A stretch of 31,383 nucleotides of DNA from a virus (lineage: Duplodnaviria > Caudoviricetes). The stretch is from positions 1 through 31,383 of IMG/VR virus record IMGVR_UViG_3300017651_000084. The stretch is one strand, 5' to 3'. Below are positions 2,497 to 16,485 of the stretch, piece by piece. The position numbers were made by a program, and so were the translations under genes. Under the pieces are notes generated by a model, which was given only the letters and a program-made list of their open reading frames with translations, did no database searches and was not told the DNA's origin. Within the stretch, counting starts at the first letter, position 1. The number at the start of each line of letters is the position of its first letter.

Positions 2497-3219
2497 GTGA
2501 AAAGTTTTATTATTCTCATGTCAATTTGGGGTGTTGTACTAGCATTAATAATAATTAATCTTTTTACAAATCCTGCCTCTTTTTTTGTTAATGGAACAAT
2601 AATTCTTGGGTGGTTTCTGTTTGCTATACAATTAACCTGGAATCAATCGGAAAGATTTTATATGTTTATAAAAAAGTTGTGGTTTAATATGATAAATCCT
2701 GAATGTGTTTGGAATATGGAAGTTTCATACCAAGGGGATTTTGACAGAGATATCTTTGATGTTTTAGATAAAACTTTTTTGGAAAGAGGAGAAAACCAAA
2801 AAATTATATCAGTAAGTAACATGCGTAAAATATACAAATTGGATACCCTGTCTTTCGAGATTAGTGTAGATGAATATAGTAGTACTATACAATTATCTTT
2901 ACAAGATTTAGAAGTTTCTTACAGACGATCCAAAAAAATAATTGAAGAGGAACTTGGTCAGCTATTAGAAGAAATAAATAAAAAAATAAAAGCTGACAAT
3001 ACTCATTACTCTTTAATCATTCAATTTAATGAATTTAATCCTTACTATGGTTTTTTTATAAGACGTCTGAATGCAAAAGATATTCAGACATTTAATGTGA
3101 AATTTAATATTGAAAGTGATAAGGTGTCAATTGGAAAAAAAAGAATCGAAATAAACACTACAACTTTACAAAAGTTAACCACTTTTTCAAAGGAATATTT
3201 AACTCTTTCCCCACGCTAA
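2497..3219 (+). CDS. Unknown membrane-anchored protein (two N-terminal hydrophobic helices plus soluble domain)
   Basis: RBS AAAGGAG/AAGGAG upstream; residues ~3-23 and ~29-47 are hydrophobic; 240 aa; opposite strand to its neighbours. Confidence 0.8.
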   Translation: MKSFIILMSIWGVVLALIIINLFTNPASFFVNGTIILGWFLFAIQLTWNQSERFYMFIKKLWFNMINPECVWNMEVSYQGDFDRDIFDVLDKTFLERGENQKIISVSNMRKIYKLDTLSFEISVDEYSSTIQLSLQDLEVSYRRSKKIIEEELGQLLEEINKKIKADNTHYSLIIQFNEFNPYYGFFIRRLNAKDIQTFNVKFNIESDKVSIGKKRIEINTTTLQKLTTFSKEYLTLSPR

Positions 3220-3894
3220 TTATAGGTGGGGTTTTATTAGCGTTTGATATATTTCCTCTACTAGATCTAATTCCTGTTCAATTGTTTCAATTGTGTCGTA
3301 TAAAACTATAGTCCCTTTTTTAGAGATAGCTATAGAAAATTCCTCTTTAGATTTATGGCTAACATATTTCATACGAATAGAAGATACATTACCTTCAGCA
3401 GCTGCATCTATAAATTCTTCACTTTTGTGTACATTTGGTCCAAAAAATCCAGCTGTTTTTAAGTGCGCTCTATTAAGATCTGCAATCCAGGCTCCACCTA
3501 CTTCTGTAATAAGCGGATACATTCTTGTGAAATCAATTTTTACCGGTTCTAAATTATATAACTTGGTGTTATTAATCCTTTTTATAAAATCGAGAGCTGC
3601 ATCAGTTTTGGTTTGAATAAAGGATAGGTCTTCTGCGGATTTAAAATAAGTATAGAAATTAAGTGGTTCGAAATAATATGTAAAATTTTTTCCGAAAACT
3701 CTTCCATTTTTTTTATGCATAAAATCATGATGACAAAGATATTGATCAAAATCCAAATGAAAGTCAATATGTTTTAATTCCAGTTTAATTTCAGAAGAAC
3801 CTTCATCTTCAAAAAGTTCTTCTTGAATGGGAATCATATAAGATTGAATAGTATGAAATTTAAAGGTGTTACAAGCCAAATAAGCCTTTGCCAT
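3220..3894 (-). CDS. Unknown soluble protein downstream of the repressor
   Basis: 224-aa ORF with RBS AGAAAGGG; its stop abuts the stop of the convergent gene. Confidence 0.82.
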   Translation of the reverse strand: MAKAYLACNTFKFHTIQSYMIPIQEELFEDEGSSEIKLELKHIDFHLDFDQYLCHHDFMHKKNGRVFGKNFTYYFEPLNFYTYFKSAEDLSFIQTKTDAALDFIKRINNTKLYNLEPVKIDFTRMYPLITEVGGAWIADLNRAHLKTAGFFGPNVHKSEEFIDAAAEGNVSSIRMKYVSHKSKEEFSIAISKKGTIVLYDTIETIEQELDLVEEIYQTLIKPHL

Positions 3895-8745: not shown

Positions 8746-9292
8746 ATACTTTGATATGCAACGTATTCTGGATGAACACATCTTAAACGAACATCCTGAA
8801 TTAAAAGAACAAGATAATCTGCCATGGAAGTTATTAGCCCTACAAGTGGAACTAGGTGAATGTGCAAACGAATGGCGCGGGTTTAAAAAATGGAGTAATA
8901 ACCAGGAACCTAGAACCAAGGCATTAAAATTTCCTGCCATGATGGAAGAGGACAAAGAGTATTACAATCCCTTGCTTGAAGAGTATGTAGATGGATTCCA
9001 TTTCGTTTTGTCAATTGGATTAGAATTGAAGATTCTTCCGCCTTACGAGATTACACCTTACATCTCAAAAAATACAACTGATCACTTTAATAACGTGTTT
9101 GAGGACATCTCAAACTTAAAAAAATCAATAAACGAAGATTGGGAAGTAGAAGAGATTGTTGAATTGTACGATGAACTTTTTAGAGGTTATATCGGATTAG
9201 GAGACATGCTTGGATTCACTTGGAATCAAATCGGACAAGCATATATAGCAAAGAATGAAATAAATCACGAAAGACAAGTAAACGGGTATTAA
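8732..9292 (+). CDS. dut: Dimeric all-alpha dUTPase (dUTPase_2)
   Basis: LALQVELGECANEWRGFKKWS, LLEEYVDGFHF, AY..KN..NHERQ..GY motifs. Confidence 0.9.
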   Translation: MDLNKYFDMQRILDEHILNEHPELKEQDNLPWKLLALQVELGECANEWRGFKKWSNNQEPRTKALKFPAMMEEDKEYYNPLLEEYVDGFHFVLSIGLELKILPPYEITPYISKNTTDHFNNVFEDISNLKKSINEDWEVEEIVELYDELFRGYIGLGDMLGFTWNQIGQAYIAKNEINHERQVNGY

Positions 9293-9293
9293 T

Positions 9294-9392
9294 ATGAACT
9301 TCTTCCGTGGCTGTTTTATATGCATTGTTCCAGCACTAATCATTTTGGCAGCTATGATCTATTTAGTAATTTGGTTGAATAACACATTTTAA
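9294..9392 (+). CDS. Small single-TM peptide (32 aa)
   Basis: MNFFRGCFICIVPALIILAAMIYLVIWLNNTF; starts 1 nt after the dUTPase stop. Confidence 0.5.
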   Translation: MNFFRGCFICIVPALIILAAMIYLVIWLNNTF

Positions 9393-9428
9393 GAAAAAGG
9401 TTTCAAGAATTCGAGGTGAGTATTTCGA

Positions 9429-9602
9429 ATGGCAGGTGCCTCTATTGTCGTAGGAAAGAAAAGTCAATGTTGCAATTGTTCAAAAGTTTTTGTTGTAACA
9501 AACGAAAAACTAGTTTGCTATTGTTCGAGAAAATGTGAATTTGAACATGATTTGTTTTACTGGAAACCAGCAGCAATATTACCTAATGAGAGTGGGAGAT
9601 AG
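9429..9602 (+). CDS. Small Cys-rich putative zinc-binding protein (57 aa)
   Basis: RBS GAGGTG; CCNC...YCSRKC. Confidence 0.65.
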   Translation: MAGASIVVGKKSQCCNCSKVFVVTNEKLVCYCSRKCEFEHDLFYWKPAAILPNESGR

Positions 9603-9603
9603 T

Positions 9604-9756
9604 ATGAAAACAAACCCACAACTAGAATTACAACGGAAAATTATCAAAGAAGAATATGACGATTTGAAATGCTTAAACTCATTGAAAGCAGCTGCTCTAA
9701 ATAATGAACTGGATAAGCTGAACAGGAAGAAAAGAAAAGGACGGAGGATAACATGA
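9604..9756 (+). CDS. Hypothetical protein (50 aa)
   Basis: RBS GGGAG supports ATG 9604; ATGA overlap with the next gene. Confidence 0.6.
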   Translation: MKTNPQLELQRKIIKEEYDDLKCLNSLKAAALNNELDKLNRKKRKGRRIT

Positions 9757-10295
9757 GGGATTATCTTAATTCTAATGAGAAAAACCAATTTATGGTCCTT
9801 CAGTCAATAGTACAACTGATGGACGGATTAAGAAATAGTGGGGTAGATGGTCCAAAAATTAGCAGCATGTTAGAAGATTGGAAAAGCCGAGGAAACATCA
9901 CAAAAGAAGAGCACAAGAACCTAAAAACAGCGGAAACATTCTTGAGAAAATTTTTATCCTCAGTTTATGAAAGGTTAAGCCCAAAGGATCAAGACCAACT
10001 AAAGAAGAAACTTGTTAAGTTTGATTTCAAGTTGATTGATGATTATACCCTAAAACAAATTGACCGTAATATTGCAGATAAAATCAACAATGCCACAATG
10101 CCAAGGCAACAATTCTATGACTGGTGTGTTGAAATCATGAATGTAAAGTGCAACGGATGCACAAAAGATTGGAATACCTGCGAGTTATTTGAAGTGTTTG
10201 ATAATAATTTGGTTCCAGAGAGTGGTTTCGACTGTAAAAACTGCAAATACGCGTATCAATCAGAGGATTATCAGGAGGTACGTGAAGATGCGTGA
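9753..10295 (+). CDS. Conserved phage protein with C-terminal Cys cluster (DUF5651-like)
   Basis: MRDYLN..EK; CNGC.K....C.L...C.NCKYAY. The family name is recalled from memory. Confidence 0.7.
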   Translation: MRDYLNSNEKNQFMVLQSIVQLMDGLRNSGVDGPKISSMLEDWKSRGNITKEEHKNLKTAETFLRKFLSSVYERLSPKDQDQLKKKLVKFDFKLIDDYTLKQIDRNIADKINNATMPRQQFYDWCVEIMNVKCNGCTKDWNTCELFEVFDNNLVPESGFDCKNCKYAYQSEDYQEVREDA

Positions 10296-10605
10296 TAACG
10301 AAATATCAGTGGATATTGAAAAGTTACATCAACTCTTTATGTCTGGAGAAAAGCTTTCAGTAATCGCTTATAAGTTTCAAGTGAGTGAAGGCTATATTCA
10401 GCGCTTAATCAGTAATGAACGAAAACAGAATCCAGATAAATGGCCAAAACGGAAAAAGAAAAAACAAACAATGGAAATTGATATTTATTCATGTGAAGAG
10501 TGTGGCAGAGCTTTTGGTGTTGAAGAGTGTGAGGATCCTAAAGTTTGCCCTTGTTGTGAAAGTGAATTATGGGAATATTCACATTCTGTAAAAATCACAA
10601 TCTGA
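10288..10605 (+). CDS. HTH plus zinc-ribbon protein
   Basis: RBS AGGAGG supports ATG 10288; LSVIAYKFQVSEGYIQRLIS HTH; CEEC...CPCC. Confidence 0.7.
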   Translation: MRDNEISVDIEKLHQLFMSGEKLSVIAYKFQVSEGYIQRLISNERKQNPDKWPKRKKKKQTMEIDIYSCEECGRAFGVEECEDPKVCPCCESELWEYSHSVKITI

Positions 10606-10640
10606 TAAAAAATCTTGAAGTAAATAATTGAGGTGAAAAT

Positions 10641-10811
10641 ATGACTAGAGAAGCTACGGGTTATAAATCGAAATATGATCATCCAAATGCATTTGGTAAA
10701 TTTCTCTGTATTATGTGTCAAAAGAAAAGTAAATTGCCTGCGAATTATTGCAAAAACTGTGGAAAAGAGCTGGAAGAATATCAGAAAAAAGGATTGAGGG
10801 TGGGAAGTTGA
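10641..10811 (+). CDS. Small zinc-ribbon protein (56 aa, not in ORF track)
   Basis: RBS GAGGTG; CIMC...YCKNCG. Confidence 0.65.
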   Translation: MTREATGYKSKYDHPNAFGKFLCIMCQKKSKLPANYCKNCGKELEEYQKKGLRVGS

Positions 10812-11062
10812 AGGTTCTAGTTAGCAAGGGAAACTATGAACAAGTTCGTGAAGCTGAAAAGGTAGCCGGAAAGAAAATCAAACATTTAAAAATGTACGTA
10901 CCAGATTGCGTGGACAATGTTTGGGGAGTATATCAAATTATCCGTTGCTATAAATCTATTAATAACTATTATTCAGAAATGAAACTAATAAAAAAGGCAG
11001 ACAGCGAAATCGATGCTCATTTAAAAGTAGTGGAATTAGTAAGGGAAATTAAGCAAAGTTGA
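10808..11062 (+). CDS. Hypothetical protein
   Basis: TTG 10808 overlaps the upstream TGA; RBS GAGGGTGG. Confidence 0.65.
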   Translation: MKVLVSKGNYEQVREAEKVAGKKIKHLKMYVPDCVDNVWGVYQIIRCYKSINNYYSEMKLIKKADSEIDAHLKVVELVREIKQS

Positions 11063-11097
11063 AAGAAAAAGCGACATAAACCAAAGGAGGAATTTTA

Positions 11098-11355
11098 GTG
11101 AAATATAAATATGAGAACGTTCAATCTGTCGAAGTTAAGGAGTCATTCAAAGCACATAAACACGATGATTCGTATGAAATTATAGAAACAATCGAAATAC
11201 CAGTTGGTGCTAAAGGTGTGATTGTATCAATGGGTAACAGTAGTATTGATAATTTTCAAAGTCATTACGATATCGAATTAAACATTGATGGTAAAGAAGT
11301 GGAAGCAAGTATTCATGAAGATGGTATGGAGAAACTTTTCAAACTATTTTATTAG
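11098..11355 (+). CDS. Hypothetical protein (beta-rich, possibly SH3-like)
   Basis: RBS AAAGGAGG; 85 aa. Confidence 0.72.
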   Translation: MKYKYENVQSVEVKESFKAHKHDDSYEIIETIEIPVGAKGVIVSMGNSSIDNFQSHYDIELNIDGKEVEASIHEDGMEKLFKLFY

Positions 11356-11385
11356 GTCGCAGTTCGAGAAAAGAGTTAAGGGGTG

Positions 11386-11565
11386 ATGGAGCTCTTGCCG
11401 AAATGGAAGGAAAACGAAAACAACGAGTATGAGGTGTTTATGTGTCAGCGTGGAATAATTACCATTCCTGCGCCCTTGAGGAAATTGCTTTCCCTAGATG
11501 ATAACGCATCAATTGTCGTCCGACTGGAAGACGATAAGCTTGTATTAATACCAAAAAAGGAGTGA
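11386..11565 (+). CDS. AbrB/MazE/SpoVT-family DNA-binding protein
   Basis: QRGIITIPAPLRKLLSL....IVVRLEDDKLVL.P swapped-hairpin pattern. Confidence 0.78.
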   Translation: MELLPKWKENENNEYEVFMCQRGIITIPAPLRKLLSLDDNASIVVRLEDDKLVLIPKKE

Positions 11566-11569
11566 TCAC

Positions 11570-11704
11570 ATGCCTGTAAGTAAACAAAAATTACAAAGGT
11601 TTATTGATTTACAACTCCATGAGATTAAAAAACAGAAGAAAGACTTATACACTTTCCTGTTGCAATTGAATGCATATTTAGCTGAAGGGAAGTTTGATGA
11701 ATGA
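11570..11704 (+). CDS. Small hypothetical protein (44 aa, not in ORF track)
   Basis: RBS AAGGAG; MPVSKQKLQRFIDLQLHE...GKFDE; ATGA overlap with the next gene. Confidence 0.6.
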   Translation: MPVSKQKLQRFIDLQLHEIKKQKKDLYTFLLQLNAYLAEGKFDE

Positions 11705-11889
11705 ACTTAAAATATTTGTTCTTTTGTAAAAACTGTGGAGCGCCTCAAGAAATACACGAGTATGTTGTGAAAGTCCACATGGTAAACCCAAGAGTACCAG
11801 GGTACCATTGCGACAATTGCAAGGAGATAAACTTTATGAGTCCTCAAAAGAAAATGGAACTAATTCAATTAGTCTATAAAAACAAATGA
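11701..11889 (+). CDS. Small zinc-ribbon protein
   Basis: CKNC...CDNC. Confidence 0.65.
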
Positions 11890-11906
11890 ATTCGGAGGGT
11901 ATGAAC

Positions 11907-12395
11907 ATGATGAATCGAGCAGTCCTTGTTGGACGTTTAACTAAGGACCCGGAGTTAAGATATACACCATCAGGTGTAGCAGTAGCAACATTCACTTTAG
12001 CAGTTAATCGTACATTTACGAATCAACAAGGTGATCGCGAAGCGGATTTTATAAACATTGTTGTGTGGAGAAAACCTGCTGAAAATGTAGCCAATTTCTT
12101 AAAGAAAGGTTCATTAGCTGGAGTTGACGGACGCATCCAAACTAGAAACTATGAAGGGCAAGATGGTAGACGCGTTTATATTACAGAAGTTATTGCTGAG
12201 TCTGTTCAATTTCTTGAACCTAAAAAAGATGGAGGATATCAAAGTCCGACAGATCCACCACCGATACATGAAAATTATCAATCTAATAATCAATCAAACA
12301 GCCAAACGACTCGTGGAAATGCACGAAATGATAATGATCCATTTGCAAATAGTGGACAACCAATTGATATATCAGATGACGACTTACCATTTTGA
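11907..12395 (+). CDS. ssb: Single-stranded DNA-binding protein
   Basis: [21 protein letters not shown]; acidic tail DISDDDLPF; RBS GGAGGG supports ATG 11907. Confidence 0.97.
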
Positions 12396-12415
12396 AAAAA
12401 GGTGGAGAATCCTGT

Positions 12416-12541
12416 ATGAAAAATAAAAAAAAGTATAAGAAATGGTTGCAGAAAAGCAGTAAGTTCCGAAATGAATTGAGAGTTAAAGAGTGTTGGAGAA
12501 ACATATTCGTGAAGAAAGGTATTTTAGAAGAAAGGGGATAA
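12416..12541 (+). CDS. Small basic protein (DUF3983-like, 41 aa)
   Basis: RBS AGGTGGAG; ...WRNIFVKKGIL. Confidence 0.6.
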   Translation: MKNKKKYKKWLQKSSKFRNELRVKECWRNIFVKKGILEERG

Positions 12542-12544
12542 TCA

Positions 12545-12703
12545 ATGATGCACGGCAAGGTACATGAGTGGAAAATGACGGAGAAGGAAAGACAAGAGTA
12601 TATAAAAAAATATCCTATAAAACAATCAACAAAGTCAAAGAGAAAAGGTAAAGCAGCATATAAAGACGTTTTATCAGGTAGAGATAGCCGAAAGGAAAAA
12701 TAA
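12545..12703 (+). CDS. Small basic hypothetical protein (52 aa)
   Basis: RBS AAAGGGG; MMHGKVHEWKMTEKERQEYIKKYP. Confidence 0.62.
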   Translation: MMHGKVHEWKMTEKERQEYIKKYPIKQSTKSKRKGKAAYKDVLSGRDSRKEK

Positions 12704-12768
12704 AAAAGCCAGGACTTCTCCTGACTGACCCTAACTTTATTATATCACAGGAGGAGTTCGGTTGTGAA
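12702..12768. promoter_or_regulatory. arpU leader: anti-SD hairpin and antisense promoter/terminator
   Basis: GGACTTCTCCTG 12712-12723 pairs with CAGGAGGAGTTC 12748-12759. Minus strand has TTCACA, 18 bp, extended -10 TGATATAAT, and an AGTCAGGA/TCCTGGCT hairpin with a T tract. Confidence 0.6.
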
Positions 12769-13219
12769 AAGACAAATGACAATAATCTTACCAGAAGTAA
12801 ATACGAAAGCTACAAGAAAAAAGGTAGAAGCTAAATTTGAAGATTATCGAAAATACTTAGTAACACTGCCTAGTGATTTTATTCCGAAAATCACACCTAC
12901 ATACTCGGTTATTCCTCCTGTTGTTACTAACTCGTTTCATAGTTCAACTGAAGATATAGCAATTGAGCGTATCGAACTAGAAAAATCAAGAAATGAGTTT
13001 ATGAGCAAAATTCACAAAGCTGTAAATACATTGAAGAACGACGAACGTTTCATTATTTTAAAGAAATATATGTGCCATGATATTGGATATGACTTGGATA
13101 TCTGGACTGAATTAGGAATCGGCAAAACTAAATACTATGAAGTAAAAGATAAAGCAATTTTACGATTAGCATTTGCTCTTAAAATTGAAGTGTATAAGAA
13201 AAAGAACGGGGGGAAATAA
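12764..13219 (+). CDS. ArpU-family late/packaging transcriptional activator
   Basis: LPEVN.KATRKKVE...P.IT.TYS...S.TE..A...A...L...ER.II...Y...IW.ELGI.KTKYY..K..A..RLAFAL. Confidence 0.88.
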   Translation: MKRQMTIILPEVNTKATRKKVEAKFEDYRKYLVTLPSDFIPKITPTYSVIPPVVTNSFHSSTEDIAIERIELEKSRNEFMSKIHKAVNTLKNDERFIILKKYMCHDIGYDLDIWTELGIGKTKYYEVKDKAILRLAFALKIEVYKKKNGGK

Positions 13220-13221
13220 TC

Positions 13222-13764
13222 ATGAACCTCGTTCAACCCATACGTGATAGAGAGCTCCTTCAAGAAATAAAGAAATCCTTAAAGAGAGAAAACGAGAGGA
13301 ATTATATTTTATTCTTGTTAGGAATTAATACGGGACTTAGGATATCAGATATTTTGAGATTAAGAGTACGTGACGTTCAAGGCTGGGATATCTATATAAG
13401 GGAAAAGAAGACTGGAAAGCCCAAACAAATTAAAATGCCTGGAGAACTTAAGAAAGAAATTAGGAACTATGTAAAGGATAAAGATTCGTCTGAATTTTTG
13501 ATTAAAAGCAGAGAAGGGAAGAACAAGCCAATCACTCGAGGAATGGCATATGTAATTTTAAGTGAAATTGCAGAAGAATTTGATTTAGAACGAATTGGTA
13601 CCCATTCTCTAAGAAAGACATACGGGTATCATCACTATAAGCAATTTAAAGATGTTGCAGCTCTTCAAAAAATATTTAACCATTCTGATCCAAGTATTAC
13701 CTTAAGATACATCGGTATTGAGCAAGATAGCTTGAATGAAATGCAACGTAAATTTAAGATTTAA
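13222..13764 (+). CDS. Tyrosine recombinase, catalytic domain only (180 aa)
   Basis: GINTGLRISD (R), EKKTGK (K), HSLRKT (HxxR), FNHS and TLRYIG (Y); complete catalytic set. Confidence 0.92.
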   Translation: MNLVQPIRDRELLQEIKKSLKRENERNYILFLLGINTGLRISDILRLRVRDVQGWDIYIREKKTGKPKQIKMPGELKKEIRNYVKDKDSSEFLIKSREGKNKPITRGMAYVILSEIAEEFDLERIGTHSLRKTYGYHHYKQFKDVAALQKIFNHSDPSITLRYIGIEQDSLNEMQRKFKI

Positions 13765-13787
13765 TGATTTCTATATTTTTTTATCTA

Positions 13788-13910
13788 TTTTTCAATTGTC
13801 TACAAATTTCATGTTGTCAAATTGAAAAAATAAAGTACCTATAAATATTGATTTTATAGGGATTGTTTGAAAGCTTCGAGTTGTACACATTATAGGTTAA
13901 AGCTAATTCA
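13788..13910. promoter_or_regulatory. Candidate recombinase target region with stacked inverted repeats
   Basis: TTTTTCAATT-N22-AATTGAAAAA (13788-13829); CCTATAAA-N7-TTTATAGG (13838-13860); imperfect dyad GAGTTG...TAATTC (13878-13909). Confidence 0.45.
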
Positions 13911-13998
13911 CTAATTGAGAATGAGAGGGCATTTTAGATTCAAAAGTGCTCAAAATCAAATGAAATACTTATGCTAATACGACAAAAAAAGTAAAGGG

Positions 13999-14439
13999 AT
14001 GAAAGTAATGAGGGAAATTAAGTTTCGTGCTTGGGATAAAGTTTATGAACATTTCCACGAAGGAGATATTGCTAGGGAATATGTCTTAGGTGATTTTTTA
14101 AACAATCCAGAATACGAAGTAACGCAATACACTGGCTTACTCGATAAGAACGGTAAGGAGATTTACGAAGGGGATATATTAAGAGTTCCTGTTGACATTA
14201 ATCAAGAAACTCATGGTTGCTATTCTTTACATGAAATAATCCTGAAAAAAGGAGTAGTCATCACCAAATATTTAATATCTGAAAAAGGAAGAATCTTGCC
14301 GAGGGGATATGCGGCGGGGTTCTTACTAGATAGCTATAACTTTGATAACAAAACATTCTTATTTAACGATAATCCAACCATGGAAACAAGAGTTGAAGTA
14401 ATCGGCAACATTTACGAAAATGCAGATTTATTTTTGTAA
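13999..14439 (+). CDS. YopX-family protein
   Basis: MREIKFRAWDK...QYTGL.DKNGKEIYEGDI...EVIGNIYEN. Confidence 0.92.
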   Translation: MKVMREIKFRAWDKVYEHFHEGDIAREYVLGDFLNNPEYEVTQYTGLLDKNGKEIYEGDILRVPVDINQETHGCYSLHEIILKKGVVITKYLISEKGRILPRGYAAGFLLDSYNFDNKTFLFNDNPTMETRVEVIGNIYENADLFL

Positions 14440-14485
14440 TAGTTCGGGGCTAGTACTGAAAGTTTTGGGTAAGGAGGGCGTGGAA

Positions 14486-14860
14486 ATGGAGTATGACGAG
14501 AAAGTAATTAGGGCTAAAAGACGAATAGAGTTTCTGCGAAAAGTGCACGGATTGAGAAAAAAAGATATTTGTAAAGCTATGGGATTTAGTAGACAACATT
14601 ATCATGAAAAGTACCAAAATAGTCCTGTTTTAAGCGTTAAATCGCTTATAGGAATTACAAATTTGTTAGGAATTTCTGAATATGACTTGTTGCATTCATT
14701 AGATACAGAATTTAATGAATTGCCAATTGTTAAGGCTTTTCTTGAATACTCTGAAGCTTGGGATAAGTATCAAAGTTTAAAGATAGGAAAATGGGATTGC
14801 GAACCATTTAACAACATTGGTGTTGATTGGTTAGATCCGAAAGACCAAAAAGCGAATTAG
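14486..14860 (+). CDS. XRE-type HTH protein with C-terminal extension
   Basis: RBS AAGGAGG; IEFLRKVHGLRKKDICKAMGFSRQHY...LLGIS..DL. Confidence 0.7.
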   Translation: MEYDEKVIRAKRRIEFLRKVHGLRKKDICKAMGFSRQHYHEKYQNSPVLSVKSLIGITNLLGISEYDLLHSLDTEFNELPIVKAFLEYSEAWDKYQSLKIGKWDCEPFNNIGVDWLDPKDQKAN

Positions 14861-14875
14861 GAGGGTTTTTAAAAA

Positions 14876-15046
14876 ATGGATAAAATTGATTTATTACTTA
14901 GTGGCAAAGAAAGATATTTCTGTCATCGTTGTGAAGGACAAAAGGCTTATATTATTAAATCTTTTTATGAAGATAATGACAAAATTGAAGTTTACTATTG
15001 TCCAGAATGTAACAATGAATGGTCTAATGATGAAGAACATTGCTAG
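14876..15046 (+). CDS. Small zinc-ribbon protein (56 aa, not in ORF track)
   Basis: RBS AGGAGGG; CHRC...YCPECNNEW. Confidence 0.7.
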   Translation: MDKIDLLLSGKERYFCHRCEGQKAYIIKSFYEDNDKIEVYYCPECNNEWSNDEEHC

Positions 15047-15098
15047 TTCTCACTTCGAGAAAATTGACTAAAAGAGCGCAGTAAGAAAGGAGTATGAA

Positions 15099-15383
15099 AT
15101 GGACAGAGATTATTTGATTTCTCTTTGCGAAAAAGCAATTGTAAAACAAGATAATTGGACAGATAGGGATTCAGCAAGTTCCCAAGTTCAAATTGGCAAA
15201 GCGTGGGCTTTATTGAAAGCTAATTGCGACTACAAAGCCATCCAACAAAATGAACAAATCATAGATTTAACAATCGAATACAAAGGGTTTTCTTACTTTG
15301 AGATGTTGGATATGGAAAAAGATTATTTTTATATACCAACTGAAAAACTTCTTGAAAAAATGAACGGTAAGGACTGGTATTAA
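15099..15383 (+). CDS. Hypothetical protein
   Basis: RBS AGAAAGGAG; 94 aa. Confidence 0.75.
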   Translation: MDRDYLISLCEKAIVKQDNWTDRDSASSQVQIGKAWALLKANCDYKAIQQNEQIIDLTIEYKGFSYFEMLDMEKDYFYIPTEKLLEKMNGKDWY

Positions 15384-15414
15384 CTTCGCAGTTCGAGGAT
15401 TATTGACACAAAGC

Positions 15415-15491
15415 GCGAACTTTCGACGAACTTTTCGCGAACTTTTCGCGAACTAATTATGAACTTCTTTTGGTTATAAAGGTGATATGAT
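15415..15491 (+). promoter_or_regulatory. Late promoter: five 11-bp direct repeats plus extended -10
   Basis: RCGAACTTTTC-like units at 15415, 15426, 15437, 15448 and 15459; TGATATGAT at 15483-15491; no canonical -35. Confidence 0.72.
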
Positions 15492-15523
15492 TGTAATGTG
15501 AGAAAATTTCTTGAAGCAGGTTA

Positions 15524-15555
15524 GCGTCTTTCCAAATTGGGAGGACGCATTTTTT
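15524..15555 (+). terminator. Intrinsic terminator-like hairpin
   Basis: GCGTCTTTCCAA/TTGGGAGGACGC stem followed by ATTTTTT. Confidence 0.65.
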
Positions 15556-15557
15556 AT

Positions 15558-15629
15558 GTCTCTGTGGTGTAACGGAAAGCACAACATGTTTCTACCTTGC
15601 TAGTTCGGGTTCGATTCCTGACAGGGACT
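15558..15629 (+). tRNA. tRNA-Arg(TCT)-like gene with degenerate anticodon stem (possible pseudo-tRNA)
   Basis: Acceptor GTCTCTG/CAGGGAC, D-arm GTGT/GCAC with GG, T-arm TCGGG-TTCGATT-CCTGA, loop TTTCTAC. Anticodon stem ACATG/CTTGC has 2 mismatches; no encoded CCA. Confidence 0.72.
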
Positions 15630-15652
15630 TATTAACCCAAGAGGTGATTGAT

Positions 15653-15868
15653 ATGAGACTTGAAGATCATCTTAATGACAAACAGAAGAAGCAGCTCAAC
15701 AAGATAAGAGTATCTCTACCAAAACCTAAGAATAAGAAAAAGAATAAAGATAACAACAAATCTAGTACAGCTAAGAAGAAAGAAGAGAAGGTTGATTGGG
15801 TAGATATTATGGGGATGAATCGTGATACTTATAGACGTGGTAAGGGAGGAGCAATGAGAAGGAAATGA
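15653..15868 (+). CDS. Small basic phage protein
   Basis: RBS GAGGTG; ends W.DIMGMNRDTYRRGKGGAMRRK. Confidence 0.72.
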   Translation: MRLEDHLNDKQKKQLNKIRVSLPKPKNKKKNKDNNKSSTAKKKEEKVDWVDIMGMNRDTYRRGKGGAMRRK

Positions 15869-16176
15869 CAACAGAGGAATTAATTAAGCTCATTCGTTCC
15901 GATAACCTTATGAAGTTTTATAAATGTAAAGAATGGTTGGCACTTCGGGAAAGAGCGTTGAAACGAGACAATAATGAGTGTCAACTATGCAAGGCTAAGG
16001 GTAAAGTTGGACCTGCAGAGAATGTTCATCATATGAAAGAAGTAAAGACTCATCCAGAGTTAGCTTTATCACTGGACAACTTACAATGCCTTTGCATTCC
16101 GTGTCATAACGAAGTACATGATCGATTGGATAAGATTAGTAACAAACCAAAGTTTATAAACGAGGAGAGATGGTAA
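15865..16176 (+). CDS. HNH endonuclease (terminase-associated)
   Basis: FY...EW..LR..AL.RDN.ECQ.C...VHH......P.LAL...NL..LC..CHN..H. Confidence 0.93.
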   Translation: MTTEELIKLIRSDNLMKFYKCKEWLALRERALKRDNNECQLCKAKGKVGPAENVHHMKEVKTHPELALSLDNLQCLCIPCHNEVHDRLDKISNKPKFINEERW

Positions 16177-16485
16177 ATGAGTTGTACAGATTATCTATAT
16201 GAATGTTTATATTGTCAACATCAAGAAATAGTTAAAGCTTCTGATCCAAGGAAAGATGGTCGAAGCTGCAGCAAGTGCGGAAAGCATACAACATTATTAT
16301 GGTATCGACCAAGTGCTATTACGTTTGATGAAATGCATGAGTATCCTAATAAACTGTTACAAAGTTCAGTTCAAAAGAAAGCAAAAGAGAATATCAAGAA
16401 GATCTTATTAGACTATGACATTAACAGCATTGATTACAACGCAAAAGATGATGAATATGTGATTTATCTTGATAGAAAAGGATAA
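16177..16485 (+). CDS. Zinc-ribbon hypothetical protein
   Basis: RBS GAGGAG; CLYC...CSKCG. Confidence 0.7.
   Translation: MSCTDYLYECLYCQHQEIVKASDPRKDGRSCSKCGKHTTLLWYRPSAITFDEMHEYPNKLLQSSVQKKAKENIKKILLDYDINSIDYNAKDDEYVIYLDRKG

Follow-up and report, generated by a model that had tools for sequence, protein, structure and literature searches.

Introduction

In engineered cassette exchange with Cre or Flp, heterospecific lox or FRT sites flank the gene to be replaced. The genome analysed here, hereafter the window, comes from a soil Bacillus-type phage and makes up a complete virus record (IMG/VR record IMGVR_UViG_3300017651_000084; 31,383 bases) of temperate siphovirus type, and in its early operon small genes are bracketed by 32-bp sites of a comparable arm-spacer-arm layout, one site type at the gene start (spacer beginning with GA) and another at the stop (spacer beginning with CG). 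As with lox and FRT sites, two different spacers bracket a gene, so that its replacement would be possible without excision. The GA/CG sites differ from them in being natural, in lying in phage early operons, in their 6-bp spacer and their weak outer arms. In this phage and its relatives they are likely swap points for a recombinase.

Joints in mosaic phage genomes lie mostly at gene boundaries, and the usual account is illegitimate recombination with selection, since conserved boundary sequences are seldom found (PMC3029335, excerpt). The PeSL cassettes of T4-type phages are a close parallel, with conserved intergenic elements on either side of small accessory genes, at which related phages have gained, lost or replaced genes (PMC2839356, excerpt); gene content changes at GA/CG sites too. 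PeSLs are about 100 bp long, come in a single kind and include both promoter and terminator, whereas GA/CG sites measure 32 bp and are of two polar kinds; the sigma-70 promoter and stem-loop terminator of a PeSL were not found at them, as there is no terminator-like match at the sites and no excess of promoters in the window region (13 vs. 24 expected). Integrons likewise hold co-oriented, mostly promoterless single-gene units with a site overlapping the gene end, and no complete integron is reported from Firmicutes genomes in the excerpt consulted (PMC4889954); the GA/CG system differs in having two end types instead of one and no folded attC, IntI or attI/Pc layout. Tn916 and Tn1549 share with it strong inner inverted arms and 6-bp centres that differ at the two ends (PMC5871717, excerpt), whereas GA/CG centres are class-fixed and the units, at 0.2–0.9 kb, hold neither integrase nor excisionase. 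Finally, the SPBRE elements bound by MrpR (PMC10516654) and the L5 stoperators (PMC3029335) are repeated, oriented, intergenic protein-binding sites of temperate phages; they differ in being 13–15-bp repressor sites of one phage group, and the excerpts of both papers report no link to gene exchange.

Boundary-delimited phage cassettes are thus already a known kind, and the two-ended GA/CG sequence family is a variant of that kind. No description of GA/CG sites was found in the open-access literature, subscription papers and supplements being outside the search, and word look-ups gave no such sites in the available parts of an SPbeta comparison (10.1101/2021.11.22.469490), a thermophilic-phage review (PMC8303945) and the Tyrovirus paper (PMC9703825). 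Because the joints here follow a set 32-bp design, in a start and a stop version, the question of mosaicism becomes testable, and models of the two site types let accessory units be called across Bacillaceae prophages, giving a list of small exchangeable genes.

Sites and units in the window

Site models were trained on other prophages only, with the window held out, because circularity was to be avoided; the final set comprised 136 loci. The first model, seeded with three copies from locus L200 and built on 42 sites from 58 other prophage loci, gave its three highest scores among some 62,700 window positions to 11352 (19.6 bits), 15381 (15.9) and 15043 (10.0), and on the minus strand the best window score was 6.9 bits. 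A sequence-only reading of the window had earlier quoted ten motif strings, all of which are present at the positions it gave, and these three are the copies it had regarded as strong (11357, 15386 and 15048). At each, the stop codon of the upstream gene lies at offset 0 or 1 of the site. The weight-matrix check that this reading had proposed bears out an enrichment, with 3 matches of at least 10 bits between 9300 and 15450, whereas 300 dinucleotide shuffles gave 0.17 on average and never more than 2.

As loci were added, the motif resolved to a 32-bp pseudo-palindrome composed of an arm (consensus TTAATGCACAKTT), a 6-bp spacer and an inverted arm. Sites of the CG class have the spacer CGANNA and sit on the stop codon; in a second class the spacer starts with GA, most commonly GACACA, and the right arm runs into the ribosome-binding site (RBS). 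The held-out GA model ranks 11048 first in the window (19.7 bits), with 15053 (10.2) and 13968 (7.1) also recovered, and a later held-out CG model returns 11352 (19.5 bits), 15381 (18.9), 15043 (9.4) and 14432 (−0.5). A lone right arm at 14848–14860 scores 10.3 bits, within the top 0.01%, and has no left arm. The noise level of the GA model is set by minus-strand matches at 10701–10732 (12.0 bits) and 9359–9390 (10.6 bits), and because of these two scores the assignments of 15053 and 13968 rest on position and pairing. Both minus-strand matches were treated as noise; the one at 9359–9390 overlaps the copy quoted earlier at 9382.

Judged by sequence, the window holds two clear units (11048–11383 and 15053–15412), one probable unit (14829–15074) and one doubtful unit around YopX (Table 1). 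Signals of both start and stop type occur in 4 of 50 plus-strand window genes (11098, 13999, 14876 and 15099), at thresholds chosen after the scores were seen. Several of the weaker copies quoted earlier find a place in this scheme: that at 11053 forms part of the top GA-class match, and the copy at 15076 belongs to the GA site at 15053, as its right arm and not as an in-register copy. At 14834 there is a good right arm with the left arm missing, and the copy at 14437 is weak as a whole with a left arm in the top 0.3%. The copy at 13972 matches a weak GA-type site scoring under both minus-strand matches and is doubtful, and those at 9382 and 10595 gained no support from the models; a homologue of the gene ending at 10605 ends in a GA site in L395. 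The motif had been described as absent from the structural module, which holds in that no plus-strand copy there reaches 10 bits, the best (9.0) lying within a tail gene.

No Pfam, PHROG or NCBIfam match was obtained for the 85-amino-acid (85-aa) gene of the first unit. Among YopX homologues 1 of 44 is bracketed at both ends, and a YopX homologue forms a GA-CG unit in L268. Three shallow contig sets covering 8800–16400 contained no joint at any site, although contigs cannot show absence.

Table 1 Sites, cargo genes and neighbouring features of the window (ORF, open reading frame)
Feature	Position	Strand	Remarks
GA-type start site, spacer GAAAGA, strong inner arm	11048–11079	+	ahead of RBS of 85-aa gene; 19.7 bits
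85-aa cargo gene, unit 1	11098–11355	+	ORF; relatives at 70–74%
CG-type stop site, spacer CGAGAA	11352–11383	+	19.5–19.6 bits; TAG of gene at offset 1
ArpU-family late-gene activator	12764–13219	+	TIGR01637, 132.9 bits vs. cut-off 43.1
180-aa catalytic-domain-only tyrosine recombinase	13222–13764	+	PF00589, phrog_216
Likely own cis-site of the recombinase	13793–13909		two 32-bp palindromic sites (13793–13824, 13878–13909), inverted, around a short central palindrome
Weak GA-type start site ahead of YopX, doubtful	13968–13999	+	7.1 bits
YopX gene, doubtful unit	13999–14439	+	PF09643
Weak CG-type site at YopX stop, doubtful	14432–14463	+	−0.5 bits; left arm top 0.3%
Start site, strong inner (right) arm 14848–14860, no outer arm	14829–14860	+	spacer GA-like, displaced by one base
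56-aa zinc-ribbon-like cargo gene, probable unit	14876–15046	+	ORF; weak zinc-ribbon matches under cut-off
CG-type stop site, spacer CGAGAA	15043–15074	+	third CG-class match, 9.4–10.0 bits
GA-type start site, spacer GACTAA	15053–15084	+	10.2 bits, right arm 10.1; 10 bp past CG site
94-aa cargo gene, unit 2, no family	15099–15383	+	ORF; one relative at 61–64%
CG-type stop site, spacer CGAGGA	15381–15412	+	15.9–18.9 bits; TAA of gene at offset 0
11-bp tandem repeats, likely ArpU binding sites of late promoter (predicted)	15414–15468	+	separate from cassette motif

Two-ended architecture in related prophages

The consensus of the 136 loci has symmetric arms in a 13-6-13 geometry, the core-site layout of tyrosine recombinases (lox/dif type), in which two inverted arms of 11–13 bp surround an asymmetric spacer of 6–8 bp. 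At 15 bits or more there are 75 GA and 109 CG sites; the CG count is inflated by loci fetched with CG-type patterns, which leaves the pairing unaffected. Neighbouring sites 41–1000 bp apart follow each other as GA-CG in 50 cases, as CG-GA in 4, as GA-GA in 4 and as CG-CG in 8, and the GA-CG pairs are spaced 211–945 bp apart. Co-orientation of the kind seen in integrons is found, with 66 GA/CG pairs within 1 kb on the same strand and 0 on opposite strands. A spacer-blind scan of inner arms gave the same pairing, CG following the best left arm downstream of a GA site in 40 of 45 cases and GA preceding the best right arm upstream of a CG site in 40 of 49. In 33 of the 50 units the content is a single plus-strand ORF, which ends at offset 0 or 1 of the CG site in 25 of these 33, and an RBS-like word follows 43 of 50 GA sites (background 20%). 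Five further CG-GA pairs are only 12–21 bp apart, like 15043/15053, and the supposed empty cassette at 15048/15076 is therefore a junction where one unit ends and another directly begins. Within a locus, 15 of 34 pairs of CG spacers are identical vs. 2.8 by permutation (9 of 28 vs. 2.3 without L424), a likeness that the three CG spacers of the window fit.

The arms are roughly complementary and lie within transcribed intergenic gaps, as they would if the motif were an RNA or single-strand hairpin acting in processing, in antitermination or in the manner of attC. We consider this extremely unlikely: the two arms of a site do not covary (0.424 vs. 0.417, p 0.29), the mean folding energy is only about −2.5 to −2.9 kcal/mol (z −0.2 to −0.7), and Rfam returned no match other than a tRNA.

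Model training was iterative and thresholds were chosen. Duplicate loci L336 (= L379) and L380 (= L341) were left out of the pair counts. An exact 14-base scan of viral contigs was dropped, as nearly all of its 119 loci were chance or coding matches; second and third pattern scans yielded 47 and 15 loci, of which 13 of 47 were kept by eye as plausible phage sites and 15 of 15. A whole-genome pattern scan of 269 genomes gave 28 matches vs. 13 for a reversed control, so some of the fetched sites are chance. Judged by eye, the motif core may resemble the Spo0A box, the LexA box and a −35 hexamer. In L485–L494 several GA-CG units hold a reverse-strand ORF or stand apart from the phage markers tested, and units may also carry independently expressed genes.

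A sister family in Bacillus cereus-group phages

A further 79 loci fetched with the recombinase of Table 1 (L002–L080) are mostly of B. cereus-group type and carry a different motif with the same geometry, in 63 of the 79 loci and with 352 sites on the plus strand vs. 1 on the minus strand. Sister-type sites also occur in L449 (IEBH), L450 (phage 250), L430 and L433. The two families are mutually exclusive, a single GA/CG-family site being present in 1.09 Mb of B. cereus-type loci. About eight 6-bp spacers occur in the sister family in a fixed order; identical spacers are found in 135 of 226 and 96 of 168 partner pairs vs. 10% at random, and neighbouring sites share a spacer in 3 of 206 cases vs. 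10.7%. Identity between partners switches across the spacer, with genes exchanged from phage to phage where spacers match, and in the far arm the variable positions agree at a near-random level although the spacer is common to the partners. By these sequence comparisons, spacer matching and crossovers confined to the spacer are both present in the sister family; in the GA/CG family spacer matching is seen at class level, in few pairs.

Changes of gene content at the sites

Homology among relatives starts or stops at the sites and gene content differs there, the outcome that the sequence-only reading had asked of a synteny comparison. Six pairs of GA sites share the upstream flank only, 4 the downstream flank only and 1 both; for CG sites the corresponding numbers are 5, 2 and 1. 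In the clear one-flank pairs the switch of identity falls inside the motif. One gene family, putatively methyltransferase-like by motif, recurs as a GA-CG unit in L412, L429 and L436, where the genes on either side of it differ, and L367 and L334 have both flanks in common around different content. No empty site was found for the 69 segments tested, a search of low power as few segments had informative relatives. The earlier idea of cassettes thus stands in part, as single-gene units do lie between the sites and relatives differ there in their genes, whereas the single repeated, integron-type site that it assumed has given way to two site types.

The window's own cargo genes offer indirect evidence. 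For the 94-aa gene, the relative in L531 has at its end a site from a different family (AAAA-6-TATT type); for the 85-aa gene, the relative in Geobacillus virus E3 has such a site at either end, the two differing in spacer. No DNA-bearing relative was found for the 94-aa gene in viral contigs or for the 85-aa gene in viral contigs or 401 genomes, and a metagenome scan returned only the window's own record (L530). The third site type, TAAAA-6-TTTTA, bounds the relatives of both genes (L531:1270–2035, a Bacillales genome, and L532:545–880, Geobacillus virus E3), and one of its spacers equals the commonest CG-class spacer.

A proposed exchange mechanism and its rivals

We propose that genes bracketed by GA and CG sites are exchanged by double crossover at like spacers, through a tyrosine-type recombinase supplied in trans, a reading to which we assign a probability of about 0.5. 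Such a recombinase would bind both arms and exchange strands across the 6-bp spacer, with GA pairing with GA and CG with CG. A double crossover between two phage genomes, or between phage and prophage, would then replace one gene by another in the same slot, and the swapped gene would keep the frame of the early operon. The GA-GA and CG-CG tandems met now and then would come from single crossovers between like spacers. Should a recombinase that uses natural heterospecific spacers lie behind the sites, it would offer a new tool for cassette exchange.

A number of observations weigh against this proposal. The breakpoint pairs are few, old (72–91% identical) and not independent, and spacer positions 4–6 are not common to upstream-only pairs (0.38 vs. 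0.50 at random). In 8 of 50 units a reverse-strand ORF stands in place of a forward one. The 85-aa and 94-aa cargo genes of the window are, by sequence, site-bounded elsewhere too, but not by GA/CG ends. No candidate enzyme emerged from co-occurrence, no protein family being present in more than 22 of the 42 unit-bearing loci, which are partial, and one unit-bearing phage that is 96% complete has no PF00589 match. No GA/CG-family site was found alongside host recombinase genes (XerS-like and XerC/D; 30 of the recombinase matches of 5 genomes). Scored with the two-arm model, four dif-like sites of hosts reach −2.2 to 4.5 bits, where true single arms average 10.5, and an identity with the dif/pdif sites of XerC/XerD was rejected on this mismatch of the arms.

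Two further observations against the double crossover bear on rival explanations. Inner arms are stronger than outer arms (10.6 and 12.0 bits vs. 5.4 and 4.6), a contrast not predicted by a simple double crossover and possibly overstated, as a weakened left arm went into the seed of the GA model. Because the arms are strong inside and weak outside, we kept as a rival that each unit is a miniature non-autonomous element that circularises by joining its two inner arms across a mismatched 6-bp centre, as Tn916 and Tn1549 do, and inserts at degenerate targets. A slight excess of complementarity between a unit's inner arms (0.591 vs. 0.560, p 0.009), the variable spacing of CG+GA junctions (10–21 bp) and the homology-free exchange known for Tn1549 Int (PMC5871717, excerpt) agree with this route. 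It is nonetheless quite improbable, since the spacers are class-fixed at both ends and not variable coupling sequences, tandem junctions on average lack two strong arms, and the 69 segments, few with informative relatives, gave no empty site.

The second observation is that tandem GA sites in L334 and L484 carry 30–100 bp of duplicated flank, and homologous events are therefore also indicated. Together with the lack of a recombinase that tracks the motif, this fits a reading in which the sites bind a regulatory protein, in the manner of stoperators, SPBRE or PeSL, and genes swap there by homologous or annealing-type recombination, as the sites are the sole short homology of otherwise unrelated phages. 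We regard this rival as unlikely but serious because it has precedents: a repeated SPbeta element bound by MrpR, a repressor with a recombinase fold (PMC10516654, excerpt), the PeSLs (PMC2839356, excerpt) and exchange at boundary sequences (PMC3029335, excerpt). It does not readily account for two fixed spacer classes tied to gene start and stop, or for the sister family, in which partners have a common spacer beside near-random far-arm positions. Moreover, the motif is common to phages of many host genera, unlike phage-specific stoperators, and the region has, as described above, no excess of promoters.

Taken more broadly, spacer-matched exchange by double crossover may be one case of a general site-specific gene-exchange system of Bacillales phages, in which starts and stops of accessory genes are marked by spacer-coded sites, a recombinase of the host or of a helper carries out natural cassette exchange, and different host lineages have separate site families, such as the two-ended GA/CG family and the ordered eight-spacer family of B. 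cereus-group phages. We put this forward tentatively, as a possibility somewhat short of even odds; if true, phage mosaicism at gene boundaries would have a dedicated mechanism.

The 180-aa recombinase and its probable own site

The tyrosine recombinase between the two clusters of units, which the sequence-only reading had linked to a possible integron-like array, is catalytically complete by motif (R40, K63, H128-x-x-R131, H154, Y163), as that reading had stated. It matches proteins in 243 phage records, including phi105, phi3626 and streptococcal phages, and its closest relatives are in Bacillaceae genomes. Directly 3′ of its stop lies a pair of palindromic sites, both of which are found, at 70% identity or more, in 49 of 58 distinct homologue 3′ regions, and which are kept in phages whichever of the two cassette families they carry; the CG-class cassette model gives them −7.5 or lower. 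From this arrangement, the recombinase most likely acts on its own predicted site, and perhaps resolves genome multimers. The outer arms of the pair change together with recombinase clade, and in nine B. cereus-type loci the 3′ region of the gene differs. An invertible switch behind the gene was rejected, because the spacers of the pair are unlike and, in the relatives compared by eye, the inner palindrome has not moved, as was a FimB/FimE invertase (NCBIfam 33.8 and 29.1 bits vs. cut-offs 221 and 222).

That this protein excises, captures and shuffles the cassettes as an integron-like integrase is highly unlikely, and it is probably not the cassette enzyme, as judged from gene and site distributions. 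Besides its complete catalytic residues and its position, the role would be favoured by its own sites being also 32 bp long, with one arm loosely like the B. cereus-type cassette arm (4.5 bits vs. 11.9 for true arms), and the enzyme could act in trans from a co-resident prophage. Yet it does not co-occur with the motif: of 11 near-complete virus records that bear the motif, 3 have the gene, and so do 3 of the 7 in which a full unit is present. Among loci fetched by ArpU, units occur in 5 of 15 with the recombinase vs. 3 of 19 without (p 0.42), and among those fetched by YopX (leaving out L430 and L433, which have B. cereus-type sites) in 0 of 4 vs. 8 of 34. No PF00589 match is present in IEBH or phage 250, which have 10 and 7 sister-type sites, and the recombinase's own site pair is conserved across phages with unrelated cassette motifs. 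In phi105, which has the recombinase, a scan of the 15 kb fetched with the CG-class and B. cereus-type models gave no match.

The GA/CG system is not an integron, as four tested features fail. The IntI profile TIGR02249 reaches 42.6 bits on the 180-aa protein, over residues 15–88, vs. a cut-off of 265; the sites do not fold like attC, they are not of a single kind, and they are not tied to the adjacent integrase.

Genome setting and late region

The window has a serine integrase gene at 160–1626, and its other genes include ImmA/ImmR-like genes, a DnaD-like replication gene, dUTPase and SSB. Downstream of YopX follow HNH, terminase and then the virion genes. The ArpU-family protein has the features of an ArpU/Ltr late activator, a TIGR01637 score above cut-off and direct repeats ahead of the late genes. 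Tandem repeats similar to those of the window are found in L001 and L200, and binding of such repeats by Ltr/ArpU has been demonstrated (PMC3753634, excerpt). At the head of the late region (15524–15629) lies a terminator-like hairpin followed by tRNA-Arg(TCT), and a tRNA-like stretch is seen by eye in the same place in L001 and L200.

Between immA and immR, at 2497–3894, stand two convergent AT-rich genes (240 and 224 aa) that match no family above cut-off and are a possible cargo or defence pair. The gap behind the dUTPase gene (9445–9526) contains two 37-bp direct repeats, 45 bp apart and 70% alike.

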